Positions 2,302-23,043 of a stretch of DNA of 64,000 bases are shown here, piece by piece; positions within the stretch are counted from its first letter, which is position 1; the number at the start of each line of letters is the position of its first letter. The translations under genes and the position numbers were made by a program. The stretch is from Dudresnaya verticillata. Taxonomy: Eukaryota. The stretch covers positions 682,001 through 746,000 of the forward strand of contig OZ374563.1 in NCBI GenBank assembly GCA_977862235.1, given 5' to 3'. Below the pieces are notes generated by a model. That model was not told where the DNA came from. It worked only from the letters and a program-made list of their open reading frames with translations, and searched no databases.

Positions 2302-3160
2302 TGTGGTGCAAAGCGTCTGTAGACGATGGACCGCCGAGCAGTTCGGGGCTCGGTGGGTAGCTGCGCCCTTGGCGAGGGGTGATCTCGCCGTGGGCGACTT
2401 GGTGGTAGAGCAAAGGAACACGCCTTGGGCGGACTGTAGACGCCCGAGGCGGAAGGTGTGAAGGAAGGGAAAAGGGAAACAGAAAGGAACAAAAGGAAAA
2501 CACGTCAAGGACGGGTAGAGACGTGGAAGCACGGGAGGTAGACGCTTAGCCGTAGGCAGCGGTAGGATACGCGCTAGCGGAACGGGGAAGTCTGGACCAA
2601 GGCCGGCTTGTCCGGGGTTTACTCAACGTCGCAGACGGATTACCTAATATACTACGTGAGCGACGGCGGTAGGCGCGGTGCGCGGGAACTCAGGACGCGT
2701 GTCACGTCGTTGAGCGTCTGACACGTCGTCGTCGCCATGCAGCCGCCCGTGCGCGCGGGAGCTCAGGAGTAGCTTACAGGCGCGTGCGTGTAGCGTTGCG
2801 GGTGATCCGGATTCGGATCCAGATCCCGGCCAGCATTGCTGGCGCGCGGCCCTTACAGGCGCGCTCCTTACATCACGGTGGATCCGGATGCCGGATCTCG
2901 AAGTTCCATCCGGATCCGATCCGGATCCGGGCCAAGCTTACAGGCGGGCGCCCTGCGCCCGGCCGATCGGGATCGTGCATCCGGATCTGGCCGTACAGTG
3001 GGCGCGTGCGCCGCGCCGCGCGGGGTAACGGCGGCCGTATGCCCGTGGGCCAATCGTCGATGACGTGTTCGCGCGCCAACGGCGGTGGACGTTCCGTCGG
3101 TGGACGTTGGCATATAATACGCTCAGAGCGAAAAAGGGGCAGCCCTCACCTTGCACCACA
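2302..3160 (-). repeat. 3' LTR (859 bp)
   Basis: Bounded by the perfect 10-bp inverted repeat TGTGGTGCAA (2302) / TTGCACCACA (3151-3160). Preceded on the sense strand by a G-rich PPT. Sense TATA-like TATATTA at 2651-2645. Confidence 0.85.
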
Positions 3161-3172
3161 CGACCCCCTCGC
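3161..3172 (-). promoter_or_regulatory. Polypurine tract (imperfect)
   Basis: The sense strand reads GCGAGGGGGTCG immediately before TGTGGTGCAA. Confidence 0.65.
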
Positions 3173-3612
3173 AAAACGCGAACACGTCCGCCTCAAGCTT
3201 GTGCTTTCCTGCGGGTCCCGCTTTGTCGTGCGTGCGTTCCTGCGTTCCGGCTGTGCCGCGCTAACTTCCCGTGCTGCGCGTTGCGTCCGGCGAGCTCTCG
3301 TTCTCTCGCGCTCGTTTCACCGTTCTTCATCGCCGCTGGCGCATTGTGAATCCCGTCAACGACGCCACATCCAAATCGTCGCCTGGGGCGTGTCAGCTGC
3401 ATCGTCGTCGACGAGTTGTGTGAAGTTCATCGCCCAAGGCGCAGGTGTTTCCCGGTGACGCAGCTTCATCGTAGTCGCCCGTGGCGCAGAACAAAAGGCG
3501 TCTTTGACGTAAGCAAAAAGTGTAACCGCCTGTGGCGTGGGGCAAGAGTCGTCGTTGACGGTTGTTTGACCTTAAGCGCCAGTGGCGTAAGCGAAGTTGC
3601 GTCGTCGACGAT

Positions 3613-5967
3613 ATGCCGACGTTCAACGGTGTTCAGGTCGCGGCGCCCTCGGCCGCGCCGGTATACTTATCTCCATACGACTTCGTCGGAAAGAACCCGC
3701 AGGATCACGGGGATATTTTCGCGCAGCCCCCCTGGTTTGACCAGGAGGCCTTGCACAATGAGGAGCTCATTGCTCATTACGCTACTAGCGGATTTTTGCC
3801 GGGGGGACTCCCCCTTGCCGTCGTTTGGACGATGGATTGGAAGTTGCGCTGCGCGGTGCCGCCCGATTGGCTGTGGGTTCGCGCAGGGCAATTTCGTGCG
3901 GGCGTTCATGCCAAGTTCGTCGCAGACGTATATCGTCGTCCGATGCGTTATCCGTGCTCGGCGTTAACGCCGGCCATTTTCGAGTTCGATGCCGGTCAAT
4001 ACCGGACCAAGGGTGAGATCGAATATGGGAATCGTCTAGGGACGTTGTCGCTCAAACATCTGAGCGTTTCGGCGGAGCCGCGCATTAGGCAGGAGGCATA
4101 CCTCCTGGAAGTACGCTTGAAAGCAGATTTTCGTTACCAACACCGAACGGGGACGTTCTTTTGGGAACGATGCATACGTTGGGAATGTGAAACGCGTCGC
4201 TGAAAGGGCGTTTTTGTAGCCTACCAGGATATGCAGGTCGATCATATCGAACGCAGTAAGTTGCCTCATTGCTTCGTGAAGGTACCGCCCGTTTGGCGAG
4301 AGTTCGAAATTTGCGAAGGTTTCGCTGCCGAACTTCCTCCGTGTCTCACGTATATCGGGTCGGAGTTAATGACGGACCCGTACTCCAAGTGGTGGGTCAT
4401 GTTCTACACCGAATGGGTAGCAAACGTAGCGTACGCATGGATGTGGGAGGTGTATGACACCTTCCGCATGTATTATCTGCCACCTCGCATAGTCGCGTCT
4501 CTTGGTGGCCTGGACCTAGCTGACATACTCGGCAGGTCGAGGAACAGCCAGGAGTTCTGGGATTTGCGCTCAGTAGCGGATGAAATTAACTGGAACGACC
4601 CGGCGATGGTGCCGTGAGGGAACAACCGTCGTAAGACGAACCGCCCGCGATTCGCGATGAGTCGTACTCACTCCGCCTGTGGCGATTGGATCCATTATAA
4701 CCCATGGACAAAGCGTCGTACGACGAAGAACGTTGCGGAGCGCCATCGCAAAACGGATCGCTTCACCCCGGGTAATCACCCGCGTGGTTTTCGTAAGAGC
4801 TGCGACTTTGTCGGTGATTTTCCTCCGCACTTGAGTGCCTTGATGGCCGAGGAAGATGCTTTTAACGCCGATGGCGAACTGGATAACCCGTCTGGGACGG
4901 CTGTTGCTACGCCTATGGCGGTTGAGTCATCTGCCGAGGCTGCCGCTACACCATCAGCTTTACCACAAGGGTCTGTCGGTGGTGTTGGGGTGTCAGCTGG
5001 CTTGCCAGCTGTGGCACCTTTGGACCTTGCGGCTCCCGTCTCGGACGTTGATGGCGATGCCGTTATGGCGACGCCAATAGTCGAGTCGGCTCCGCCGACC
5101 GTAACGCCTCAAGGCGTAGTATCAAACGTCATAGACGGGTCTGTGAAGGCGCCCTCGGTGCCAGCCTGGACCGAGGAGCAGCGCCGCACCGTGCTTGCCT
5201 TAATGCGTGCAGCTGGAGTCGCTACTAGCGGTTTGAGTGGTTCGCCCACTGAGTGGGTGAACCAGTCTCTGGCGGATGCGTCGCGTTCCCAGAGTGCGTC
5301 GGTGCCGGTGCCGATGGTTGGCGTAGGTTCTGCGTCGAAAGACGGTGCCGACGGAAAGTCGTCATCGCCTAAGGCGACTGGTTCAGCGTCCAAAGACGTA
5401 ATTGCTACTGTACCGCCAGCGGCGAGCGAGGCAGATGTCGCTTCAACGTCTCCGACGGTTGAAGAGGGCCCAGTGGCTCCTGCGTTGATGACGGATATAG
5501 ATCCAATGAGGCCAAAGGCAGGTGAGGGGTCTACGTCGGTTCAGACGGTTGCGACAGTTGCGCCGAAGGCGGTATGTTCTGCGGCGCCGAAGGCGAGCGA
5601 TGTGTTGAACTCTACGCCAAAGGCGGTTGCGGTTGCTTCGCCGTCTAAGGGGACAGTCCCTGCAACTACGCCGAAGGCGGATGTTATCGGGGCAGCACCG
5701 GAGGCGAATGGACCACTTGGTTCTGCGCCGTCGGCGGTTGGGAAAGCCAAAGAGGCTTCGCCGCCTAAGGCGGGTGGCGAGTCGAATTCTTCGCCAGGGG
5801 CGCATATTACTCCTTCAGCTGTGGCGGTGGCGGTGCCTTTGCAGTCCGTCCCTGTTGCCGCTGTGGGTGTGCCGTCGGTGACGGAAGACGACCTCTATGA
5901 AGATGCGTTGAGGGAGTCCGCCGAGGGCGATGGTGCGGCGGACTCGGCCAAACCGTCTGCGACGTGA
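3613..5967 (+). pseudogene. Antisense accessory ORF of the retrotransposon (~784 codons, two in-frame TGA), unknown function
   Basis: ORFs 3562-4203, 4231-4617 and 4657-5967 are all in one frame. The gaps between them contain no stops other than TGA at 4201 and 4615. The N-half is Trp/Tyr-rich and globular-looking, and the C-half is Ala/Pro/Ser-rich. TATAAT at 3113 upstream and AATAAA at 6149 downstream. Confidence 0.7.
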
Positions 5968-7345
5968 CATAGTTAGCGTCGTTTAGGGCGGAAGGCCTTC
6001 GCGGGGGTGCGTATCGTGTACCTGGTCGGCTCCTTTGCGGAGTCGGGGCAAGGCGTCGTACGTCGTTGACGAATGTGTTAACTGTTCTGCGGCGTTTAGC
6101 CGCCGTGGCTTGTAGCTTGGGCGCGGGGCTTCTCCGTTGCTTAGCCCGAATAAATTGTATCGTTGGTAACGTAGTTTGGTTTCGTCTCGCTGCAACCGTC
6201 GTGTTGCAGCCGTCACGTCTTAGTGTTTTGCCACCGCGTTTCTTGTCTTCGTCGTGACGACGTTAGCGTATTAATCGTCGAGAGACGTTACTTGGGCGTT
6301 GTACCTCCCTTCTTGTTCGCACATTAGCGTTGTGTAGCGCGTCTGGAGCGTATAGGGGTTTAGCGACGTTGTCGGGGCCGAGCCTCTTGGTTATCTCGCT
6401 TAGCGAAGCGTTTCTTTGCGTTGCATTTCATCCTGCCACGCCCGACGTAGTCGTCTTAGGGGACTCGCTCAGCGCGTTGTTGGGCCATTTGCAACGCCTG
6501 GGGCGTATTCTCTTCTCGTTTGGTGCTCTGTAGCTTAGTTGCGCACGTCGTCGTTGACGGAGGTCGGCGTGTGGTAGGTGAGGTCAGAGCCTTGTTCCTC
6601 GTCTCCGACGTTCGCTTCCGAGGGTGGGGAATGGTCATCGCGCGACTGTGGCGGCCATTCCCAGCGGCGGAGCCAGTTGCGCGATTTGGTTAGCGATTCG
6701 GTTGTGCGTCGTGCACGGAACCGTGATAAACGCGTCCTCGACGACTCACTCCCCCCCTTTGGCTGCGGGTACGGCGGCGTGGCCCTTCTTCGGGAGGTGC
6801 GTCGGCGGCGTGGTGCGTGTGTTCGTGCCCGGCCGAGTCGTTCGCTGGCTGGGTAAGTGAAGGCGGCAGCGACTTGGCCGTGGTGCGCAAGCGTGCGGCA
6901 ACGTCGGGGACGGTCGTTGCGCGTTACGAAGTGCGTCTGGCGTCGTGCTTGCCGGTAGCACCGGTGCTGCCACTTGGCATATCTTGTTTGGCGTAATGGT
7001 TGATTGTCGGGTAGTGCGCCTCCCCTTTGTTTGGGCATTAAAATTTCCAGCTCGCGTCTGCGTCTGCAATGGGATTGGTGAGGAGCGTACCTCGGCGAGT
7101 GATCGGGAGCCACTGTCAGCCACCCGCGCATCCGGGGCGTTGTATGAGGCCCTTTTGGTATGTTTGTCGTTGACGCCAGATTTGTGTCCGGCTCCGTCGG
7201 TGACGTGTGTGCTTGATTGTCGCCGCGGCGGGTGTGTCCGCGTCCACGTACGTTAGAGGGGGCTTCCACGCCGTTGGCGACATCCTGTCCGCGCAGTCTC
7301 TGAACGTCATTGTATTCGCTATTAGCGTTGTTTTCCCGATTAGGG

Positions 7346-10300
7346 TTATCCGCGCTGGGCGTCCTCAATATTTGGAGCCAGGCGCGTGTGCTTCCGACGG
7401 TGGTACCGCACGGTGTGTGATCGCGGCAAACTGGACACGGGCTCCCAGGTGTTCGCTGAAGCGGGGTATCCAAACCACTTGACGCGGTAGAGGATCTCAC
7501 CATCATCCGCGTAGGCGTGCGACTCGATGCGTTCGATAACGTATTCTTTCCCGCTCACAGCGTTCGGCTTGGACCTGTGTCCTTCCAGCGCCTTTGGCGG
7601 TTCGTCTCGTTGCGTGATGGGCGTCTGGTCCGGTTCGGCGAAGCGTACTCGACGAGTTGATCGCCTGAGGCGTTGGCCGTGGGCCTCGGACGCTCGATCA
7701 GCGGTCAGTGGGTTGTTGCGTCTTGAGACAAGTTCATCGCTTGCAGCGCCGTGCTTCGTGCTTGCACGGTTAACGTCTTCGTTATCGGACGCGCTTTCAG
7801 CGGAGTCATTGTTCTCATTCGGCGGTGCCGTAGCGACGTGTTCCAAACGGGTGCGAACCCCTGGGGTATTGTCGTCGTTGGAGACGGATTGCGGAGCGCG
7901 GTCGTCGGGATCGGCAGCGAAGGGCCAAAGCTCTGCCAACCCACGGCTGCGTGACGCTGTGATCGTACGCTCTTGCGGATCTCTCGCAGTATGCGAAGTC
8001 TCTGCGTCCCCCTCCGGGTCCGCTGGTGGCGTGCTGGGGGTAGTCTTCCCTTCGTCTTGTGACGTGGGGGCGACTGCGTCCTGCTCCTCAGGCGGACCTG
8101 GTGGTACGACGATTGGAGGGGCCGCCTGACCCGGTGGGGTCGGCGCCCAGACCACGCGGTCTCGGTACAAACGTTCCCGCTCATTACGTCCCTTGTCGAC
8201 GGTTACTGTCTCGTTATCCACGTGAGTTACCCGATATGGGCCGTCCGCCACTGGCGCCAGCTTGTGCTTACGCTCTGCGCGATCCGTGCTCCCGCCGCGG
8301 GCGAAGTATTCCTTACGTACGAAGACGAAGTCGCCTATGGCGATTGATTCCTTCGATTTCCTTAATCGGGTATCGAAGTTTCGTTTGTAACGTGCTTGAG
8401 TTTTCTCTAACGACGCTTTAGCGGTTCCCATCAGTGCGGCCAACCAGGTTCGCCACTTGGTGTCGTATTGCCCCGCGGTGAGTACGCTTTCGAGCGAAGG
8501 TTCCGCTTCGAGCGACAGTGGGCGTGGTGGCTTAGACAGCACCAATTCAAACGGAGCGAGATGCGTAGACGAATGCAACTGTGTGTTGTATGCGAACGTC
8601 AAGGCATCCGTGAACAGATCCCAGTCTCTCGGATGATCCGCAACGTAGTGACGTAGCGAGGCCAGGATAGTTCGATTGAATCGTTCTGCCTGGCCATTGC
8701 ATTGCGGATGATATGTCGTGGTGAAGAGATTCTCCACTCCCAAAAGACGGCAGATATCCTGAAACAGCTTAGCCACAAACTGTGGTCCGTTGTCGGACAA
8801 CAATTTCTTGGGAGGACCGTACACGAAGACCCAATGTCGTACAAACGCCTTAGCGATTTCCAATGCCGTAATACTACGCAGTGGGACCGTCCGGACCAGC
8901 TTCGAGAAGCGGTCCACAATGACGAGTAGGAACTTGTTTCCTCGCTTCGTGCGTATGAGTTCGCCCAGGATGTCGATCGATACGAATTCGAGAGGCTCGG
9001 TTGCCGGGAACAACTTCAATTGCTTGGTGTTCTTTCGCAGCAATACGCGATTCTTAGCGCAGGTTACGCAGTTGCGGACGGTCGCGTAGCAGTCCACTGG
9101 CATCGATGGCCAATAGTATTCGCGTCGAAGCGTATGATACAACTTACGCCCCCCTGGGTGCCCTGCCAACTTGGCGTGGTGCCGGAGGTGGAGTAAGCGA
9201 GCGCGTAACGAGGAGGGTACGACCACTTGCGGACGGGCTTCCACCGTTCGGACCAACAGGCCCTGTTCATCCGTTGCGAACGGTAAGGTGACCCCGTCAT
9301 CAAGACGTTTCCGGACATCGTTACAGTAACTGTCATCGCCTTGGGCGTGTACCAACTCTTCATGCGTCACTTGACGAAGGAGTACCTCATCCGCCGGTGG
9401 CGTGTTGTTGATCAACACTTGGTCGAACTCTTCGAACTCGCGTTCGGCGAAGTCGACCTCGCCTTCGGCGTCTGACAGATCGTCTTGTGACGTTTGATGG
9501 CCGTCTTCGACGTAGCTTCCGTGATAGCACGGTATATCATCGTCAATGGGCTCGACGGTTTCTCCCTTCGTCTGTAGACGCGAAAGGGCATCTGCCTGAG
9601 TATTCAGGTACCCCTTTTTGTACTTCATGACAAAGTCGAACTCGGAAAGGCGAAGGCGCCACCGCATTAACCGTCCAGAGGGGTCGCTGATTTCCATCAG
9701 CCACCTCAATGACGAATGGTCCGTATGGACTGTGAACGACTCCATCTGGACGTAAGGTCGCAGCGTCACGACGGACCATACTACTGCGAGGCACTCCTTT
9801 TCGGAGACCGAGTAGTTACGCTCTGGAGCGGTGAGCGAGCGGGACCAGAAGCCGAGTGGCTTACGTTCCCCGCCTGGCTGCGTTTGAAAGAGAGCGCAGC
9901 CAACCTGATACTCGCTTGCGTCACAGTCGACGGAGTAGGGGAGACCCTGTTGTGGTAGCGCCAGCATAGGTGGATGAGTCACGGCCTCGAGGAGCGTACT
10001 GAACGCTTTGGCTTGTGTCTCATCAAACGGTGGTAACCGGAAGTCCTGTTCCTTCCTCAGCAACTTGTTGAGGGGGGCAGCGACGTGCGCGTATCGCGAG
10101 ACGAACCGTCGGTAGACGTTACAAAGACCGAGAAAACTCCGTAGCCCCTTCTGATCCCCTGGATGCTTGGCTTCGCGTAGCGCGGCAGTGACAGTTCGGT
10201 CAACTTCTAACCGTCCTGGACGTATGACGTGTCCTAAGTAGTTGACGGTCGGGGTGAAGAAGTCACACTTGGTCAACTTCAGAGTCACCCCGGCACGGTA

Positions 10301-12073
10301 CAATGTCGAAAGGATCTCGTCAACATGACGGAAGTGACTGTCGATGTCGCTGGAGAAGATTATTACGTCATCGAGGTAGACGATGCACGAACGCCACTTG
10401 TAACCAGCGAGCAGTATGTACAACGTTCGTTGAAACGTAGCGGGTGCGTTCGTGAGACCGAATGGCATACGCTTATAGCGGAACAGTCCGGCGTGGCACG
10501 TGAACGCAGTCTTATCGCGGTCTCGCGGATTGATCGGCACTTGCCAGTACCCACTGTTACAGTCTAGGGTGGTGAAGACGTTTGCTTCCCCTAGACTGTC
10601 GATGCATTCGTCGATACGCGGCAGCGGGTACGTGTCCCGTATGGTTACTGCGTTCAAACGACGGTAGTCTACGCAAAAGCGGAGGGTCCCGTCCTTCTTG
10701 GGGGCGAAGACCACTGGTGATGCCCACGGCGATTGTGCGGGTTCGATAACCCCTTGACGCAGCATGCGGTCCACTTCCGCTTGAGCGAGTTGCCTTTGCT
10801 TCGGCCCCGCTCGATAGGGCGGGGACGATATCGGTCTAGAGCCGGGAAGCAAGTCGATGTAGTGCTCTGTGGTTGAGATTTCTCCCAACGAACCGTCCCA
10901 CATAGACGAATACTTGCGCAACATCTCCTTAAGCCGGCCTTGATGCTCGGCGGGGAGTTGGCTCAGGTCCAAATCGTCTACAGACGGAGGTTTGGCAGTG
11001 GTTGCCTCGATAGACTTCGTGAAAGTATCCGGCTGCGCCGCAGTGTTATCGTTCGTTTGAAAACGGAAATCTTGGTTTGCCTTCTCCTCCTCGGCTTGTT
11101 CCTCCGTGAGGCCCAAAACATCGGCAAGACTTACGTGACTGGGGAACACTGCTGTCGGATGTGGTAACGCCGTCGCGGCGACTTGGCCTTTGGCCAGCGC
11201 CTGCGGGCGGGGAGAGAAGTTGGCAACCAGAATGCGAAACGCTTTTAGCGGCTCCACTTGAGCAATCCCGTTCGTAACGGCCAGACCTTGTTTGTCGTAC
11301 AGCGTTCCGAACGGTTGAATTGTGATGATGCCGGCGCGCTCGGTGGTCACCGATACCCATTGCTGCGCCTTAGGCGGGATGATCGCGCGCTCGGCGACTC
11401 GGATCTTGGGCGACGTCCTCCCCTCGGCCTTGCCGAATTCCTGTTCCGTTGGTAACGGAGGATACGACGGGGGTCGGCTCAGCGGGCGGCGCGTTATAGG
11501 GACACGAGTCCCGTCATCCAATTCAACCTCGCGACTTCGCGGATATATTGCTTCGACGAACCGGTCGCAAAAGTCACAGCCTAGTATCACCGGCGCAGCG
11601 AGTCGTTCGCAAACGATCAGTTCCAACTTGACGACTCTCCGTCCTAGACGAACGATCAGGTCGATGGTGCCTCTTGTCTGGATCGCCTTATTGTTGGCGT
11701 CGGCTATGACGGGGAGGCTCTTTGTCACGACGCGCGATCGCGCTTCCAGCGGAATGTCGTCGATGCGAATGAAATTCGGACCGGCCCCCGTGTCGAGGAC
11801 AGTGAGTTTACGTGCCAAGGTACTAACGGTTGCGCCCAAATCGGCGTACACCTTATAGTTCCTCTTGGCCATTACGAACAACTGCCCTCGCATTTGGGGG
11901 GGCTGGTACCTTCGCCATGGGCGTTTTAATGACGTCTGCGACGACTCTATCCGCCCGTTGGCGTCTTTTGTAACTAATTTCGGGCCCTCCTTCCGTGTCA
12001 GCACCCGAGGCCTAGGCCTCTCGTCGTGGTGCGACACCCCAGTGTCAGGTGTTGGTGCCCGAGTTAGTTTTTC
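7346..12073 (-). CDS. pol: Pol polyprotein (protease, RT, RNase H, integrase, chromodomain), entered by -1 frameshift
   Basis: LDTGAG protease, YLDD RT, DCDAS RNase H, HH..GHPG/CVTC zinc finger, DDE core and GPY motif. C-terminal chromodomain EYVIERI...YRVKWFGY...NTWEP. The frame is open from the slippery site at 12073. Confidence 0.97.
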   Translation of the reverse strand, partial: EKLTRAPTPDTGVSHHDERPRPRVLTRKEGPKLVTKDANGRIESSQTSLKRPWRRYQPPQMRGQLFVMAKRNYKVYADLGATVSTLARKLTVLDTGAGPNFIRIDDIPLEARSRVVTKSLPVIADANNKAIQTRGTIDLIVRLGRRVVKLELIVCERLAAPVILGCDFCDRFVEAIYPRSREVELDDGTRVPITRRPLSRPPSYPPLPTEQEFGKAEGRTSPKIRVAERAIIPPKAQQWVSVTTERAGIITIQPFGTLYDKQGLAVTNGIAQVEPLKAFRILVANFSPRPQALAKGQVAATALPHPTAVFPSHVSLADVLGLTEEQAEEEKANQDFRFQTNDNTAAQPDTFTKSIEATTAKPPSVDDLDLSQLPAEHQGRLKEMLRKYSSMWDGSLGEISTTEHYIDLLPGSRPISSPPYRAGPKQRQLAQAEVDRMLRQGVIEPAQSPWASPVVFAPKKDGTLRFCVDYRRLNAVTIRDTYPLPRIDECIDSLGEANVFTTLDCNSGYWQVPINPRDRDKTAFTCHAGLFRYKRMPFGLTNAPATFQRTLYILLAGYKWRSCIVYLDDVIIFSSDIDSHFRHVDEILSTLYRAGVTLKLTKCDFFTPTVNYLGHVIRPGRLEVDRTVTAALREAKHPGDQKGLRSFLGLCNVYRRFVSRYAHVAAPLNKLLRKEQDFRLPPFDETQAKAFSTLLEAVTHPPMLALPQQGLPYSVDCDASEYQVGCALFQTQPGGERKPLGFWSRSLTAPERNYSVSEKECLAVVWSVVTLRPYVQMESFTVHTDHSSLRWLMEISDPSGRLMRWRLRLSEFDFVMKYKKGYLNTQADALSRLQTKGETVEPIDDDIPCYHGSYVEDGHQTSQDDLSDAEGEVDFAEREFEEFDQVLINNTPPADEVLLRQVTHEELVHAQGDDSYCNDVRKRLDDGVTLPFATDEQGLLVRTVEARPQVVVPSSLRARLLHLRHHAKLAGHPGGRKLYHTLRREYYWPSMPVDCYATVRNCVTCAKNRVLLRKNTKQLKLFPATEPLEFVSIDILGELIRTKRGNKFLLVIVDRFSKLVRTVPLRSITALEIAKAFVRHWVFVYGPPKKLLSDNGPQFVAKLFQDICRLLGVENLFTTTYHPQCNGQAERFNRTILASLRHYVADHPRDWDLFTDALTFAYNTQLHSSTHLAPFELVLSKPPRPLSLEAEPSLESVLTAGQYDTKWRTWLAALMGTAKASLEKTQARYKRNFDTRLRKSKESIAIGDFVFVRKEYFARGGSTDRAERKHKLAPVADGPYRVTHVDNETVTVDKGRNERERLYRDRVVWAPTPPGQAAPPIVVPPGPPEEQDAVAPTSQDEGKTTPSTPPADPEGDAETSHTARDPQERTITASRSRGLAELWPFAADPDDRAPQSVSNDDNTPGVRTRLEHVATAPPNENNDSAESASDNEDVNRASTKHGAASDELVSRRNNPLTADRASEAHGQRLRRSTRRVRFAEPDQTPITQRDEPPKALEGHRSKPNAVSGKEYVIERIESHAYADDGEILYRVKWFGYPASANTWEPVSSLPRSHTVRYHRRKHTRLAPNIEDAQRG
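12025..12073 (-). promoter_or_regulatory. Putative -1 ribosomal frameshift signal
   Basis: G AAA AAC directly before the gag TAA, with pol in the -1 frame. Downstream GGCACC...GACAC-TGGG-GTGTC has stem or pseudoknot potential. Confidence 0.75.
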
Positions 12074-14637
12074 GACTGCGGCGGTGGTTGTGGCGCTTCA
12101 TAGCGGTTGATCATCGTCGGATGACGTTCTGCCGCGTGCGGCATGGGTCCGCCTCGTGGCGATTGTGGTCGTGCAGCACGGCGAGCAGCGTCGCGGGTCG
12201 CACGTTCTTTGCAACGTACATACGCATCAGCGGGGACACCAGCCTTCTCGGCTTCGGTTAGTCCTTCATAGTTGGTAATAACCTTCATGAAGTCGCTCAT
12301 GCGGAGGAAGCAGTCCGGCGCGATGTGGCCGCGGGCGTAGCATTGGTGGCATACCAGCTGCCGACGCGCGTCTTGACGGGGCGGGCCTCTGTCCTGCCAC
12401 CCGGGCCTTGCTCGGTGGACGTGAGGAGCATACTCGGAATAGGGGACGCGTGGCGCTGGCACGACCGAGCGCCCAAAGGCGAGAGCAGGGTCCATATCCC
12501 TTTCGTCCTCGTCATCGACGTAGCTGTCCGTTGGTAGGGCCGAGGTTGGCACCGACGCTTGCTCGTCTGCCAAGTACAAATCGCCTTCGGCGTGTGTTTC
12601 CATGTCATCGACAGGTCGACTAACGTCTCGGAACTCGATGGAGGACTCCGCTATCATAGCGCGCGCTCCAGGCTTGGCGCCTCTCGTCTGTGGACGCAGT
12701 ACCCCTCGGGCATCGCCGATGGCGGATCGCGGCGTGCGTACGGCTTGAGCCGGTGTCAGTAGGTCACGTCGCGCTGACGCGGAACCGGCTCTGCCGTGTC
12801 GTGCGCGGTTGGCATCCCCTTCGTCCTGTGCGAAGTGGACCAGCCGCTCAAATGACAACTCCGCCCTTGGCGTTTCTTCTCGGAAGCGAGCGACCAGAGA
12901 CCTGATCGACGGGTCTAACCCGTCGATGTACAGCGTCATCTTTTCCCAATCGGGATATACGTTACCGCAACGAATACACGCACCGGCTAGCCGCATCCCA
13001 TAGGTCGTCTCGTCCTCGCCTTGCTTTTGGGCAGTCGACCGTAGGGCGAGGACAGCGTCCCTGATCGCCGCTGGCGTAGCATACGTACGGAGGAGGTACT
13101 GTACCGCCTCCGGATACGAAGACACCCCGCCACGGTGGCGAGAAGATGTCGACTTGACGGAGCGGAATTGCGTGGCTGCCGTACCTCGCAAGAAGTACGG
13201 CAGCGCGACGAACGCTTGGGCTTCGCTCATCTCCAGCGTATCCGCTTCATCCGCGTAACGCGTCAGGAACTCGAGGACCATGACGGGGTCGCTGCCGTTG
13301 AAGGCGGCGTCCTTCATGGTCAGCTCCAAGCGCTTGATATGGTCTTTGACCTTACCCGTGTCGCGCCCTGAGCGTTTTTGCCCTACGTCTTTGAGACGGT
13401 ACGTCCTGTACGATAATAACTGATCGAAAAGGGGGTTGGAGGGGCGTAGCTCCTTCAACCCCTTGAACCGCTTTCCGCGAGGTCTTGCGGCACTGCCGAG
13501 AGTTGGGTAGTCGTCGTCTTCAGACGAAGAGTCCGATGACTCTCCGTCACTTGACGAGTCCGAAGACGATGAGGATGAGTCCCCTCGTCGATGACGATTC
13601 TTCTTCCGTCTCTGACGTAGCTTCCGACGGCGTTTCTTCCGGTCCTTACGTCTGTGACGATCTTCGCCTGAGCTCTCGTCACCTGACGGCGGACCATTGC
13701 GCCACTTGGCGGTTTCGAGACGCTCTAAGCGGGTCGCAAGTCGCTGAAAGCGTTCGCGTGAGCTAAGCTCAGAATGCGAATGAACCGAATGAACCGTTAC
13801 TGCCGGCGGTGGTTGTGTACCCTCGCCCTGGGCGTTTTGGTTCGTCAAGAGACGGTCGAGTTCGGAGCGTAGCCCTTGTAGGGCGCCGTTCCGATCCTCT
13901 TCCAACGTCTGTAGACGACTTGCGATTCCTCCGACACTGTCGTCCAGCAACCCGGCGAACCGAGCGAGCATCGCATCGTCCTCTAAGACGCACACCTCTC
14001 GGATCCGTTCGCGTGGTATCGTTAAGTTACTCACGCGGACGGCCGAGGGTGACGCCGTTGGCGGTTGGCTTTCGCAGTTGGACCGGTCGGGCGTCCCTTG
14101 CGCCCTTTGACTTGGCGAATTCGGCTTAGCCGGTGAACAACCGGCACTGCCGTGGGGAGTGGGGCAACATGCCCCGTGTGTCAAAGGTTCGTCACCGACG
14201 TTGCGCTCCGCGGAGCGCCCCTGTTCGTCGTTGACGTGGATGGTTGGTTGATCCGGAAGTTCCGGTTGTCCCGCGACGATGTCGGCTTGTGTTCCGTCTA
14301 CGACGTCCTGTTGCTCGGCTTGTACTGTATCAGCCGAGTCAACATAGGAGCGGTAGGTGCGGAGGGCCGATCCCTCGGGGACGGAGGTGCGGACGACGAC
14401 GGGGTTGTGGCGCGTCGGCGGGGGAGGTAACTCTCCTCCGTTGAGCGACGCGTGGGAGCCTGCGTGGCCATGGCCCGGGGGTAGCGTCGGGAACGCCGAC
14501 GCGATCTCGGGGCTCACGAGGCGCCCAGACCTCGTTGTCATCCGCTGTAGCGACCGTTCAGACGCGGGTACACTCCCAGGCGTCGAAGACGGTCTTCTTG
14601 AACTTGGGCCTCGCGACGGCGGCGGTCGTGAGGCCAT
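12064..14637 (-). CDS. gag: Gag polyprotein (857 aa)
   Basis: Long ORF just downstream of the PBS. Capsid-like region (FNGSDP...FL...QKQGEDETTYG) and CCHC knuckle CHQCYARGHIAPDC. Confidence 0.93.
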   Translation of the reverse strand: MASRPPPSRGPSSRRPSSTPGSVPASERSLQRMTTRSGRLVSPEIASAFPTLPPGHGHAGSHASLNGGELPPPPTRHNPVVVRTSVPEGSALRTYRSYVDSADTVQAEQQDVVDGTQADIVAGQPELPDQPTIHVNDEQGRSAERNVGDEPLTHGACCPTPHGSAGCSPAKPNSPSQRAQGTPDRSNCESQPPTASPSAVRVSNLTIPRERIREVCVLEDDAMLARFAGLLDDSVGGIASRLQTLEEDRNGALQGLRSELDRLLTNQNAQGEGTQPPPAVTVHSVHSHSELSSRERFQRLATRLERLETAKWRNGPPSGDESSGEDRHRRKDRKKRRRKLRQRRKKNRHRRGDSSSSSSDSSSDGESSDSSSEDDDYPTLGSAARPRGKRFKGLKELRPSNPLFDQLLSYRTYRLKDVGQKRSGRDTGKVKDHIKRLELTMKDAAFNGSDPVMVLEFLTRYADEADTLEMSEAQAFVALPYFLRGTAATQFRSVKSTSSRHRGGVSSYPEAVQYLLRTYATPAAIRDAVLALRSTAQKQGEDETTYGMRLAGACIRCGNVYPDWEKMTLYIDGLDPSIRSLVARFREETPRAELSFERLVHFAQDEGDANRARHGRAGSASARRDLLTPAQAVRTPRSAIGDARGVLRPQTRGAKPGARAMIAESSIEFRDVSRPVDDMETHAEGDLYLADEQASVPTSALPTDSYVDDEDERDMDPALAFGRSVVPAPRVPYSEYAPHVHRARPGWQDRGPPRQDARRQLVCHQCYARGHIAPDCFLRMSDFMKVITNYEGLTEAEKAGVPADAYVRCKERATRDAARRAARPQSPRGGPMPHAAERHPTMINRYEAPQPPPQSKN

Positions 14638-14744
14638 GATACAATCGTAGAGTTGCTTGAACGTCGTGGACGATTAGCGACAAACGTCAGAGACGGAGAG
14701 TCGGACGTCGCGCGACGGAGGAACTCGTTGAAACGTAGCACTGC

Positions 14745-14762
14745 TTCTAGGTCGGGAGACCA
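14745..14762 (-). promoter_or_regulatory. Primer-binding site, probably tRNA-Tyr
   Basis: TGGTCTCCCGACCTAGAA lies 2 nt after the terminal CA. Its complement ends CGGGAGACCA, matching the C1:G72/A73 acceptor end typical of eukaryotic tRNA-Tyr. Confidence 0.7.
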
Positions 14763-14764
14763 GA

Positions 14765-14848
14765 TGTGGTGCAAAGCGTCTGTAGACGATGGACCACCGA
14801 GCCCCGAACTGCTCGGCGGTCCATCGTCTACAGACGCTTTGCACCACA
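14765..14848. repeat. 84-bp palindrome replacing the 5' LTR (38-bp arms, 1 mismatch, 8-nt loop)
   Basis: TGTGGTGCAAAGCGTCTGTAGACGATGGACCACCGAGC-CCCGAACT-GCTCGGCGGTCCATCGTCTACAGACGCTTTGCACCACA. Bases 14794-14848 are the exact reverse complement of 2302-2356. Confidence 0.98.
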
Positions 14849-14937
14849 TAGACCACGGAGTCGTTCCGCGGATAGCGTCTATACCGCAAAGTGCACTCTT
14901 TGAGTTCACAAGAGACCTAAAAGGTACTTCGTTACAC

Positions 14938-15215
14938 CTATCGACGTGTGGAATCTCGGCGACGTCGGGCCGCAGCGGTTTCCATGTGCTTTCCATTCCA
15001 ACAGCGGTGGATGAAGTTTTGCGGCAACTCCTCGGCGGGTTCATACGTATCCTGGTCTGGTGGGTACCCGTAACAACGCACCTTGCAGGTCATGCCCGTG
15101 GGTTCTTCACGGTGTCCCGCGATCTGATAGATGATATACTCCGTGTCGGCATCAATTGTCTCGGGAACAAGGGCAGGAAGACCGCCTGGAGTTTGGGGCG
15201 TTACAGTAATACCAC
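14938..15215 (-). pseudogene. Decayed chromodomain of an older chromovirus pol
   Basis: EYIIYQIAGHR...KVRCYGYPPDQDTYEPAEELP resembles the intact element's chromodomain, with the conserved Trp residues lost. Confidence 0.8.
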
Positions 15216-15220
15216 CTGTG

Positions 15221-16041
15221 TGTAGCAGTATGGAAGCGGCCAGAAACAGCAAAGAACAAGAAAAGACAGCTGTCCGATGCCACACGCTAATGTGTGGTAG
15301 CTCGAGGGAGGATTGGTAGAGGCTTGGAAAAGGCGGGCCCTGATGACCCGAAAGGGGGGGTGCGGAAGCACGGTAAAGACTCGGCGCGACCGACTGAAGG
15401 AAAGTATAGAGGTTGCGACCCGGTGTTTTGTAGAGTACTTGTCGTACGATGTCTGGGCCTGTACTGGGCGACCCCTGCAGGCGCGGAGCGTCCGAGCGAC
15501 CAAAAGGTGGAAACTTCCCGAACAACTCCGCTGAGTGTTTATTATGAGGGCGCCGGCTATTCCGGCGCCCATAAGCAGGGCTTGACAGCCGAAAAGTCTA
15601 TCAGCCCGAAAGGGGGTCTAAGTTAGTCTGTGATTATAGATAAAAAGGTCAGTAATGTCATTACAAGTCAAAAGTGGGAATGTATTCCAGTTAGGGGACT
15701 TGGCGGCGGATGTGCCGGTGTGCATGACGAGGTCCCGGCTGCACTGTCGATAACCTGAGCGCAGAGGTGCTCCTCGTCCGTGAGTAGGAGCGCAGCGGCG
15801 CGTCATAAATCAGCCAATACGGGGTGTCCAACTGGCGCCATTACAATGCCACGTGTACGCCCCGTGTATAGCTGCACGTCCACGTGTACAGCTGTAAGTC
15901 CACGTGTACACACGTGTATTCCACGTGTCATCCACGTGTACAGCGATGAAAGGACAGCTGTCCTGATTAAGGGACAGTTTGTCCCGCGAAAAGGAAGGCG
16001 CTCCTGTCAGCCCTGCTGCTGACAGCGTCCATACTGCCACA
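15221..16041 (-). mobile_element. Solo LTR (821 bp)
   Basis: TGT...ACA ends with an imperfect 23-bp terminal inverted repeat (19/23). 5-bp TSD CTGTG at 15216-15220 and 16042-16046. Interrupts the old integrase-chromodomain linker. Confidence 0.9.
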
Positions 16042-16046
16042 CTGTG

Positions 16047-16600
16047 GGACACCACCTGGTGTTTGGGGTATTACTGTGGTGTCTTCCGCATGCTGGGGTA
16101 CTGTACCGCCCACGTCGGTGTGTGGCGTAACCGGCGGAGCCAATAGCGGCACCGGTTGAACGGGAAATCCAATTGGTACCTTAGTGATGCGATCGTTGCT
16201 GATGGGAACCAGGACGCCGTCCTGCTTGATAGTGACTACGGAGTCCGTTGCGGTGTGAACTTCGTAGGGGCCCGTCGATCTTGCGAGGAGCTTCTTCATT
16301 TGCTCCGCAAATTCACCGACGTGGGCAGGGCCTTGATCCAATCGGTCGCGTTCCTTCCGTTTGGTGGGTCGTAGATTACGCGGCGGGCGATCTACGTAGA
16401 CTTGATCGCCACCGCGAACCACCGGTTGGAAACGCACCTTACGGTCGAAGAGGGCCTTAGACTTCAACTGGGCTGCAGTCTGCTTGGTCTGCGCCTTCTG
16501 CAGGGCATAGCGCAAACGCCGCATGGTTCCCAGTTTTTGGAGCACGGGCGTCATACGCCCCTCCGTAACGGTTTCTTCCAACTCCACAGGGGTGCCCATT
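16047..16600 (-). pseudogene. Integrase C-terminal fragment of the older, 5'-truncated chromovirus
   Basis: AQLKSKALFDRKVR...GDQVYV...KKLLARSTGPYEV...ISNDRI parallels QARYKRNFDTRLR...GDFVFV...HKLAPVADGPYRV in the intact pol. Confidence 0.8.
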
Positions 16601-17678
16601 GCAGAGTTCTGCAAAGAATCATAACGACTACATTTTTCGCATTGCTGGATTTCTCCTGCGTTGCAGATGCCCTGTGGCGTAGACTATCTAGTGTCAAGCC
16701 AACGCGCACCCAAACAAGCTCGCGACACGTGTCAGGCGCGTGCGCGTGGCACGGTGGAACGTTGCGCGCCCCGATCGGCCCCACAAGCCGCGCAGTAGCA
16801 TTCCCTGTCCCGCACACGCGCACACCCGCTCGGCTTACGCACATGTCGGCTGCTGCTGCTGAGCCGCGGCGGAGGCGCCGCCTGTCTGGCGCTGTGCCAA
16901 ACGCGGAACAAACGCGCGCAAAGTCTACGGTCCCGCCGCCCGCGGCGTTTGCTCTGCGCCCTCCCGCGACCGGCCGCGCGCCGCGCCGCGCCGCGCCGCG
17001 CCGCGCCGACACGCTTTGTTGCTGCCGGCGCCGGCGCGACGCCCGACACGCCGCGCCACGCCGCGCCCTTTCTTTCCGGCGGCACTGCTCTTGTCGGTGC
17101 TTGTCGTGCTTGAACGCCCGCGCTATCTCGCAAACAGACAACCGTGCACTTCCTGTGCTTTTGATCCGCAGCCCGCCAACTGCTTTTCGGACGGCGGTTG
17201 CGCCTGGTGCGTCTGAAACTCTGCCAGTGCCCTGTCTTTGTCGTTGTAATCCGCCGTCGTTATCCTCCGGCCAGGAAACAGCTTCCCTTCCATCCAGCCT
17301 TTCTTCCGAGCCGAATCTACTCGCTTGCTACTTTCAAATCTAATGCCATTGCAGCCCCAGACTTGCTCAATACCATACACCACCGACCGCTACCACCTGT
17401 CCCGGCCCGCACCCCCATTTCGCACAACGCCTTTTAGTATGAAAACGCCCCGCAGCAACCACCTCCCGCGCAGGCCACCCGCTTAGGAAAGCAGACCAGC
17501 AACAACTTTCAATCCCACGGCTTCACCATGCCCTTCCAACCCACCTCATCCACCTTAACCCCTCACCAGTCTTCCTTCACTACAGCCGTCCCACGTTTGA
17601 GCAACGCTACACAAACGAACACCACCCCAACGCCCCGCCTCTCAAACCCCACACCTCCCACCCTTGCGCCAGCACACC

Positions 17679-20491: not shown

Positions 20492-23043
20492 ATGGATGTT
20501 GCGGATTCCATCGAGGCCGAGGGAGATCCCGAAGAGTTCCAGCAGAGGATAATTGAAGAAGCGCGGTAAGTAGTTCCTTATGACCTACACCTTGCGTACT
20601 CACGTGCTGTCTGACTTTCGGCTCGCGAACAGGCGACTGATGTATTCTTGAAAACTCGTTCTAACCGTCATCTGTGCTTCGGACATCAATGCCTGCTTTC
20701 GATAGAGAGCTCAAAGCCGCGTATGACGCTACCAAGAGAGAGGCTGCCCGCCGCATTGTCTTGAGGAATGTCCATAACACTGCAGCGTTTTATGCAGAGC
20801 AACGTGCATTGCGAGACGAGTATCTTGCCGAGAACGAAACCGAGCGGGAAGGGAACGAAGGCAGTGCAGGGCAGAGTTGTGTTGGTCACGAGAAGCCTGC
20901 GTCGCCTGCGAATGATGACCTACAAGTTGTTTCTGTTAAGCGAACAACAACTGCTTTTGATATTTCTCTGGAACGCTTGGATAGAATTCGTGAGATGAGG
21001 GCACATGGAGGTGTCCATGTTGTCATGCCAGACGTCAACAAGTTACCGCGTTTTAACGCTTGGGTACCGGTTGTGCAGAACCAATTTGTCACGGAACCGG
21101 ACTGCGGTGTCTACGTCCCTTGGTTCGGAGATGACGCCGAGTCGCTGAAGAAAGCAGCCGAAGTGTATGAAATGATGCAAGATGACGCGGAGTTCGAGTC
21201 TGCGTTTAACGAGCCAAGCGACGGCGAGATAAATGAAGTTGGCGAGCTGAAAGAGAAGAAGGATCCGTCGAACTACACTCTTGACTCCATGCTCGGCCGT
21301 GCAGCAATCAGACACGTTGTGGTAGAGATTACTACCCGACATGGCAAGCCTTACGTCATTTGGGCTGCACTCGCAAACGCTTTGAAAGTTGATGATATTC
21401 GTCGCCTGCTGCATATGTGCGACCTTGCAGAAAGACGAAATGCTGAGAAGCAGAAGAAACTGGAGGACCGCAAGACATCTCTGCGACATAAGAAGAGTAT
21501 TGAGAAAGCAGTATACAGGCGCAATGCGGAGTGTTTCAGACAGCAGGGTCGGGACGGAAACGCAACCAATCCTCTCCGCTTCTTCTGTTTTTTCTGTCAT
21601 GAGTTCGCATGCCACTTCCACGCTGGCGATAGCGTAGCCCCAGTCATACCGATACCGGACCGAAAAGCGGAGCAGAGAAACTTACACTTCGGGAGAAGCA
21701 AAGGTAAAATTGAGCCATGCTCGATGAAATGCTATCTCCTGGAGAAGTGGAGACAAGTTCCAACTCTGCCTGAAGAAGGCCAAACTTGGTCCGCGACGGA
21801 GTTAGCACTCCTCGACGAGGGTGCCGCAATGTTCCTCAGGGATCCATGTGGAATATCACAAATAATTGGCACAAAGACATGCCGTGAAGTCAATGAAAGA
21901 ATTCGGGGCCCGCAAGAGGTGGTCCGCATCAACGAGCTTATTTGCCGGGTGAAGGCTCCACGTGATCCGCCACCGGCCAATGCTGGCCCGGATGGCAGAA
22001 CCCCACAGGAAGATACTCGAGATCTGGTTTCTGCGAAGCAGAAACGGGGGAGAAGACTGCGATATCGGCGGCGTCTCAAGTCTGCCTGTACAGTTCCCGA
22101 GAAGAAGTCCTCTCCAACTCAGGATGAAGAGCGTTTTGTCCCCTGCAATCATGCCGGGATATGTACGAAGAGAAATGGATGCAGATGTGCGTTAAAGGGG
22201 CTAGAGTGCCAGTCAGTGTGCGGGTGCAATAGCGGTCGTTTCGTTGAAGGGAAGGAGGGGATTTTCTGGCTTGGTCCAACGGAGGAAGCGACAGACAGGC
22301 TGGATGGAAAGAGATGCAAGCTGAGAGTGCAGGGTTGTGACTGTAAGGATGGATATTGCAATACGGCCAACTGCGACTGTCACCAGGCTCGCCGGATATG
22401 CAACCCTGATTATTGCAATTCTTGTGAATGCAACGTGCTGCCTTCGCAAGCAGACTTTCGAATGAGGCGGTGCCGAAATGCTGATCTTATTACCGGGAGG
22501 CATAAGAAGACGTTTGTCGGTAGGTCGAGCGTTCACGGATTTGGGTTGTTTGCAGGGGAATACTTTTGGCATGGAGATCTGATCGGGCCGTACTGCGGAC
22601 GTCTGATGGAGAACGATTTGATGGACCGGGCGTTGCGGGTACCGCAGGCGATACGTGAAACATTCGCATTCCAGGTTGTGAAGGGGATGGCAATTGACGG
22701 GGGTGTGGTGGGCAGCAAAGCAAAGTTTATTAATCATCAGGAGGGGAAGGAGGTTAACTGTGAAGCGCGCACAGAGCGGTACCGTGGAGAGGCTCGGATT
22801 GCTCTCAAAGCCAAACGGCAGATAAGTCCAGGTGAGGAGCTTTTCTTCAACTACGCGATCATTGATGAAGGAGGAGATGGGAATAACTGGTTGATGGGGG
22901 ACAAGCGAAAAAAATCCCGACGACAGGGTTCAAGTCGAGGCACGAATGATGCAGACGAGGAAAACCGGGCTAGTTCAGACGAGGAGGGTTCTTCGTCGAA
23001 GAGTTCTAGCAGCTCAGACGATGAGTATTTTGCGGCGTTCTAA
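20492..23043 (+). CDS. Enhancer of zeste-like (PRC2) CXC-SET histone methyltransferase; exons 20492-20565 and 20706-23043
   Basis: FCFFCHEFACHFH motif, SANT-like region, CXC (PCNH...C...) and SET (VHGFGLFAGE, YCG, KFINH, GEELFFNY). The intron GTAAGT...CTAAC...TAG joins the exons in frame. Confidence 0.9.

Follow-up and report, generated by a model that had tools for sequence, protein, structure and literature searches.

Although described decades ago, the antisense extra genes carried by LTR retrotransposons have, to our knowledge, no function assigned to them. VANDAL elements, the source of the VANC protein considered below, are Mutator-like DNA transposons. In plant Ty3/gypsy elements, an antisense extra ORF between pol and the 3′ LTR (aORF-3R) is represented by gene23 of Grande, by RIRE2 and by TRP28 (PF04195) of Retand, and one is also found in Boty of Botrytis; the accessible text of these reports gives the functions of the antisense extra ORFs of plant Ty3/gypsy elements as unknown (PMC7264820, PMC11963269). 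In HTLV-1, the antisense gene HBZ is driven from the 3′ LTR, according to the same accessible text (PMC7264820, PMC11963269). VANC binds short motifs that have accumulated in non-coding tandem repeats of its own transposon, and the available sections of that study describe both binding and demethylation as demonstrated (PMC5735166). Plavaka, an EnSpm element of red algae, carries the accessory genes PAG1-3, of which PAG3 adjoins tandem inverted-repeat arrays proposed, in the available part of the preprint, to be binding sites (10.1101/2025.02.11.637652). The literature covered here, which excludes subscription papers and Repbase entries, holds no account of a gene or of palindromes like those described below in red-algal retrotransposons.

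The window, that is, the whole stretch of 64,000 nucleotides analysed here, contains a minus-strand element running from 14848 to 2302 with TAGAC on either side. Its sense features are as follows.

2297 to 2301, no strand: left target-site duplication TAGAC, the same 5 nt as at 14849-14853
2302 to 3160, minus strand: 3′ LTR of 859 bp with 10-bp terminal inverted repeats TGTGGTGCAA
3161 to 3172, minus strand: PPT, a short purine-rich tract adjoining the 3′ LTR
7346 to 12097, minus strand: pol, open, 1,583 codons from stop to stop, with protease, RT, RNase H, integrase and chromodomain
12064 to 14637, minus strand: gag, open, with one CCHC knuckle
14749 to 14762, minus strand: PBS, beginning with TGG 2 nt from the LTR end, putatively tRNA-Tyr-like
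14765 to 14848, no strand: 84-bp fold-back where the 5′ LTR should be (fold z −14)
14849 to 14853, no strand: right target-site duplication TAGAC, paired with the left copy

The TG...CA ends, PBS, PPT and target-site duplication are those of an LTR element, the 5′ LTR being reduced to the fold-back, and the order protease, RT, RNase H and integrase within pol is that of Ty3/gypsy. By its coordinates, the pol frame is −1 relative to gag. The C-terminus of integrase carries a chromodomain (PF00385, E 5e-9 in Pfam), the feature by which chromovirus membership was tested here; chromodomain gypsy lineages outside the chromoviruses are present in algae, according to the accessible part of one report (PMC12477816). 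Genes in the window are compact and have long open frames, which suggests a red alga as the probable host. Among the 120 pol matches listed, Agarophyton chilense, at 52% identity, is the only named alga. The 2,440 codons of gag and pol contain no internal stop, and the conserved columns of pol are well kept. Searches with integrase/pol gave no match in viral contigs and four short loci in prokaryote assemblies, none of which reaches the 3′ region. An exact-sequence match in the protein collection was found for none of ten window proteins, and the Rfam search gave no match. A 339-codon sense frame at 6535-7554 (minus strand), which overlaps the end of pol and has no Pfam match, is probably incidental.

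In the fold-back at 14765-14848, the final 55 nt of U5, copied in inverted orientation, are joined to its final 31 nt; the structure is near-perfect and centred on a short natural stem, and the target-site duplication is intact on both sides. Its origin may lie in an inverted U5 end used by integrase, in a later template switch via the 10-bp terminal repeat, or in an assembly artefact. Transcription of the fold-back, if it occurs, would produce double-stranded RNA of about 38 bp that matches the LTR. Beside the insertion site, 14938-16683 (minus strand) is a remnant of another gypsy element, in which the end of integrase and a weakly matching chromodomain (PF00385, E 0.016) are left. The left flank (1-2301), with three copies of a 61-nt repeat (2056-2248) and slightly more short palindromes than expected, is possibly another decayed element. 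Elsewhere in the window, a 784-aa gene at 20689-23043 (plus strand) has Cys-rich CXC-like and SET-like stretches and, judged by eye, presumably resembles an Enhancer-of-zeste H3K27 methyltransferase.

Opposite in strand to gag (14637-12064) and pol (12097-7346), the plus strand at 3613-5967 forms a single frame of 784 codons between pol and the 3′ LTR, which is the position and orientation of an aORF-3R. Two internal TGA codons interrupt it, at codon 197 (4201-4203) and codon 335 (4615-4617). The features of this antisense unit and of the adjoining LTR are listed below.

2646 to 2653, minus strand: candidate sense TATA box of the LTR, proposed from the sequence only
2804 to 2988, no strand: cluster of GATCCG/ATCCGG words between two outward-facing TATA-like boxes, with 10 GATCCG against 0.4 expected
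3113 to 3118, plus strand: TATAAT, a weak candidate antisense TATA box, about 45 nt inside the U3 edge of the 3′ LTR
3119 to 3612, plus strand: leader of the antisense gene, 494 nt, with no ATG
3331 to 3610, plus strand: composite array CGCC-N3-GGCG-N12-CGTC-N3-GACG, ending 2 nt before the ATG
3613 to 4812, plus strand: conserved folded domain of about 400 codons, broken by both TGA codons
4813 to 5967, plus strand: Ala/Ser/Val/Pro-rich tail, with repeated (S/T/A)PKA stretches written with the CGCC-N3-GGCG palindrome
5182 to 5256, plus strand: weak copy of a two-helix tail module, residues ~524-548
6149 to 6154, plus strand: AATAAA, a weak candidate poly(A) signal

The initial annotation had described three ORFs in one frame of about 784 codons. 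The frame was confirmed, and the three ORFs proved to be one gene broken twice, since the family matches described below span both stops. A stretch of 802 codons with two stops or fewer appeared in none of 2,000 Markov simulations of the 4.2-kb region between pol and the LTR, and a score combining amino acids and codons singled out the antisense frame, which synonymous codon usage alone did not. TATAAT (local chance expectation 0.04) and AATAAA (0.01) lie where that annotation had placed them, but its promoter and poly(A) calls are weak: TATAA within 500 nt upstream was found for none of ten host genes of the window and AATAAA downstream for one of ten, and because host genes here rarely have such words, they are not typical signals. 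The leader is free of ATG (P = 0.06 under a Markov-1 model, 0.003 under base shuffling), as is one of 81 comparison windows, which lends mild support to a scanned leader. The opposed TATA-like boxes of the LTR may form a two-way promoter. Between these boxes, at 2648 on the minus strand and at 3113 (TATAAT) on the plus strand, the LTR also contains four CTTACA words. The 784 codons of the antisense frame include two stops, whereas the 2,440 of gag-pol include none (P = 0.06 for the difference), and the view that the antisense unit is what still functions in this copy is not supported; because the 5′ LTR is lost to the hairpin and the extra gene is broken, the copy is unlikely to supply protein. 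The check for a nested insertion, which the same annotation had named, came out against one, as no terminal repeats, target duplication or poly(A) lie around the gene.

A full HMMER scan with residues 1-410, with X at the stop positions, revealed 459 protein clusters at E≤1e-3, of which 186 reach E≤1e-10 and 50 reach E≤1e-30, the best at 1e-72 with 36% identity. The matches cover residues ~10-395 and run across both stops. More than 300 of the 410 residues are covered by 57 of the best 150 matches, all of which have a folded domain followed by a disordered tail. The window copy keeps 37 of 42 highly conserved columns, and 21 of the 57 relatives keep fewer. The best-kept residues are Asp, Glu, Arg, Trp, Tyr, Gly and Pro, a set as compatible with a salt-bridged core as with a site of binding or catalysis. 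No named member was present in 20 clusters looked up. In a 19-member cluster, 13 of 15 members listed are partial, with 88-99% identity and many on contigs of 7-45 kb; near-identical and often truncated relatives look like a transposon-like pattern of copies. Two relatives of the gene and two close relatives of pol lie on contigs of identical size (11,104 and 10,021 bp), a coincidence with P≈0.05 (0.006 when restricted post hoc to sizes of ≥9 kb), which forms a circumstantial link between the gene relatives and pol. A word-indexed protein search with residues 1-410 gave no match, and the same type of search with a 51-row profile gave five. No locus was found in viral, metagenome or prokaryote-genome contigs, nothing in the three genomes behind loci L001-L003 or in phage records, and no second copy of the domain within the window. 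Pfam (scanned with 51 aligned rows), NCBIfam, PHROGs and PDB sequences gave no significant match for the antisense protein, and PF04195 (TRP28) is absent at E≤0.1 from the window pieces and from the 51 aligned members. One relative (P0002) had no usable match in the Atlas. The proposal of an unrecognised accessory protein family is thus borne out by 459 clusters that lack a Pfam, NCBIfam, PHROG, PDB or BFVD match, and the locus very probably holds a real accessory gene borne by the element.

AlphaFold2 with a 150-row alignment gave a model of residues 1-410 at pLDDT 92.9 and pTM 0.90; the predicted domain is rich in loops, and its second half is helical. Foldseek searches against PDB and BFVD returned no match at E≤0.001, and the best VIA-align Z was 2.4; the 408-residue model was searched whole, so that a weak single-domain match could be missed. 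The prediction is therefore of a compact domain of about 390 aa with an unmatched fold, in agreement with the earlier description of the N-terminal ~400 aa as folded (pLDDT 93). The remainder had been called low complexity, which holds for part of the tail; a two-helix module occurs in 36 of 64 tails, the window's own included. The window's copy of this module scored P=0.0017 in pairwise comparison and was not significant in a leave-out test. The module is modelled as helix-loop-helix at pLDDT 87. HeH (E 0.18) and Ish1 (E 0.05) profiles each matched 1 of 22 members, and fold scores for Rho-N (Z 3.7), emerin LEM (Z 3.2) and SAP (Z 3.1) were tied with unrelated rows, so that the modelled fold may bear a faint resemblance to HeH/SAP/LEM. 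Concerning membrane features, the best 19-residue hydropathy is 1.76, located in the Ala/Val/Pro tail, and 1.8 is reached by 3 of 57 relatives; this is in line with the annotated lack of a clear TM segment. An env-like ORF, which the same source had likewise discounted, is rejected on orientation, membrane segment and signal peptide, given the antisense strand, the few relatives with a strong hydrophobic window and the signal-like N-terminus found in none of the 57.

During the test for a nested insertion, a recurring palindromic word surfaced. A scan of 3,328 combinations of half-site and spacer ranked CGCC-N3-GGCG first (42 sites against 1.25 expected) and CGTC-N3-GACG second (35 against 1.84), followed by CGTC-N4-GACG, CGCT-N3-AGCG and CGGC-N3-GCCG; these five classes, chosen after the scan, give one further feature.

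2314 to 14836, no strand: 125 dispersed CG-ended gapped palindromes in five classes, coding parts included, with a median gap of 52 bp

The 12.5-kb element thus holds 125 sites, whereas the remaining 51 kb of the window hold 24, and the excess ends at the element's ends. It persists when each of the five coding stretches examined, drawn from gag, pol and the antisense gene, is shuffled synonymously, which rules out codon bias as its source. Perfect CG-ended sites number 135 against 10.6 expected; at spacer 3, 135 of 205 palindromes are CG-ended, and only these rise above background. Near-matches of the G·U type stay at background (16 against 13.3 and 11 against 8.0), mixed half-sites number 0-4, the stem extends beyond the palindrome in 11 of 101 cases, and folding of the leader RNA is not unusual (z −1.7). 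RNA micro-hairpins are disfavoured by the lack of G·U tolerance and of stem extension, and as neither mixed nor G·U variants are enriched, recognition as double-stranded DNA is favoured over RNA hairpins. Short palindromes are also in excess, though less strongly, in the left flank (z up to 4.5), the right remnant (z up to 4.1) and the related fragment L001 (z 8.8 at spacer 3), and a host stretch shows none above z 2.3. Because the flanks and L001 show an excess, some of it may be general to these retroelements, with or without the gene. L001:1-4100 is a Ty3/gypsy fragment in a bacterial MAG, 51% identical to the pol proteins of the present element and likely a eukaryotic carry-over; its palindromes have spacers of 1, 3 and 5 (z 6.7-8.8) and differ in arm sequence. 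The element-wide signature is an unexplained feature in its own right, whichever protein reads the palindromes.

In the leader, the two commonest classes are combined into an ordered array. Five exact units start at 3331, 3380, 3476, 3527 and 3577, and a sixth at 3431 has a decayed second site; the period is 45-51 bp (about 49 bp), with the two site types 23 bp apart. This order was reached in none of 20,000 permutations, whereas identity at non-motif positions is 33%, and the array was not detected by Tandem Repeats Finder. The leader has 26 sites per kb, compared with 6 per kb for pol. Sites and spacing that are kept while the remainder drifts have the look of a protein-bound array. The array lends indirect support to the possible anti-silencing or regulatory role put forward in the initial annotation. 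Motifs have accumulated in an array in non-coding DNA of the element, as in the VANC system, and sites are present in its coding DNA as well; the combination of antisense position and motif array is known from this one element.

The element resembles aORF-3R elements in the position and orientation of the extra gene, in its likely own promoter and in the long region between pol and the LTR (4.2 kb here; 2.9-6.6 kb in Retand, according to the accessible text on that element). It differs in that its antisense protein has no PF04195 or other Pfam match, and in that its repeats keep only palindromes and spacing. Retand is described there as a non-chromovirus of flowering plants, whereas the present element has an integrase chromodomain and is likely red-algal. 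VANC offers the other close parallel, a divergent accessory family encoded by the element beside short motifs gathered in an array, but in the available sections its motifs are non-palindromic 8-9-mers confined to non-coding DNA, whereas the present sites are palindromic and run through coding DNA (PMC5735166). Binding and demethylation by VANC have been demonstrated, whereas the activity considered here is putative and drawn from sequence; VANC was not among the matches of the profile or fold searches, and no sequence or fold link to it was found. The likeness to Plavaka lies in the presence of accessory genes in red-algal transposons, with PAG3 near inverted-repeat arrays and PAG1 described, in the available part of the preprint, as domainless; Plavaka is a DNA transposon, however, and the present protein has no methylase, SET, ParB or oxygenase match, PAG1 being compared by description only. 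With HTLV-1 HBZ, the analogy would be that of an antisense gene driven from the 3′ LTR, but the present domain has no bZIP match or long zipper helix. To the already known class of antisense extra ORFs, the present case adds an accessory family not described before, whose predicted fold found no match, together with an array that may be its target.

In the reading that we prefer, to which we assign a probability of roughly 45% as a whole mechanism, a trans-acting protein of the element binds the palindromes and regulates both itself and the element, in a manner like that of VANC. The edge of the 3′ LTR would drive an antisense RNA through the ATG-free leader, and the product of the antisense gene, rather than a host factor or Gag/integrase, would bind the double-stranded palindromes as a two-fold symmetric dimer or a pair of dimers, with targets across the whole element and in its own leader. 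It would act on chromatin, perhaps via the tail module, and the outcome would be protection from silencing through open element chromatin, together with feedback limiting its own expression. The gene would be supplied by sister copies; as the protein would act in trans, single copies such as the present one could decay. Several points speak against this mechanism. The domain lacks a basic character, with a net charge of +6 in the window copy and a median of −3 across 57 relatives, and the fold comparisons linked it to no known DNA-binding fold. The window copy has a weak tail module, and the words proposed as promoter and poly(A) signal are not those typical of the host genes around it. A single symmetric binder usually accepts mixed half-sites, and since these are absent, two specificities or a read-out of shape would be needed. 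As a more tentative extension, it is possible that an algal lineage of LTR retrotransposons carries an antisense, diversifying family of new fold that reads palindromes of its own genome and an operator array, as an independently evolved counterpart of VANC.

It is somewhat unlikely that the gene is a genuine accessory factor serving a different purpose, as an integration tether, in RNA export or as a particle component, and that a host factor or Gag/integrase reads the palindromes. This reading would agree with the near-neutral charge of the domain and with the missing DNA-binding fold match, the tail module, with its faint likeness to HeH/SAP/LEM, could serve as a chromatin tether, and the palindrome excess is also present in L001 and the flanking remnants; the densest and only ordered array, however, lies directly before the gene's own ATG. 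Improbable is an enzymatic gene product, acting for instance by modification of DNA or chromatin, by which CG-ended palindromes would be written or protected and then accumulate by a ratchet. No methylase, oxygenase or nuclease match was obtained by profile or fold, no Cys/His column is conserved above 47%, and the fixed 23-bp pairing of the two site types is not explained by a ratchet. In favour of the enzyme are the CG ends of every enriched class, the restriction of the excess to CG-ended palindromes, several near-invariant acidic and Arg residues, and the methylase and oxygenase accessory genes reported for red-algal transposons in the available part of the Plavaka preprint (10.1101/2025.02.11.637652).

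More improbable still is a passenger common to red-algal mobile elements (e.g., PAG1) or a captured host gene, in either case not specific to the retrotransposon lineage. The same part of the preprint describes PAG1 as having no known domain and PAG genes as moving among transposon families of Florideophyceae (10.1101/2025.02.11.637652), and the present gene is broken while gag-pol is open; but the gene has no insertion marks around it, carries the palindrome signature of gag and pol as a sign of long co-residence, has no named member in the clusters looked up, and has two relatives on contigs of the same size as those of pol relatives. That the long frame is a product of chance or of GC-rich repeats is negligibly probable and is refuted for residues 10-395 by the 459-cluster match, with the simulations and the confident fold also against it, the empty first word-indexed search and a tail partly built from DNA repeats being the points in its favour.

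With an alignable family, a confident model and a candidate target array, one binding assay could address the role of the antisense accessory gene. If the preferred reading of a self-encoded palindrome-binding regulator is true, natural binders with sequence specificity could be drawn from the hundreds of divergent members of the family, and retrotransposons, like the VANDAL DNA transposons, would mark their own DNA for a regulator that they make themselves.
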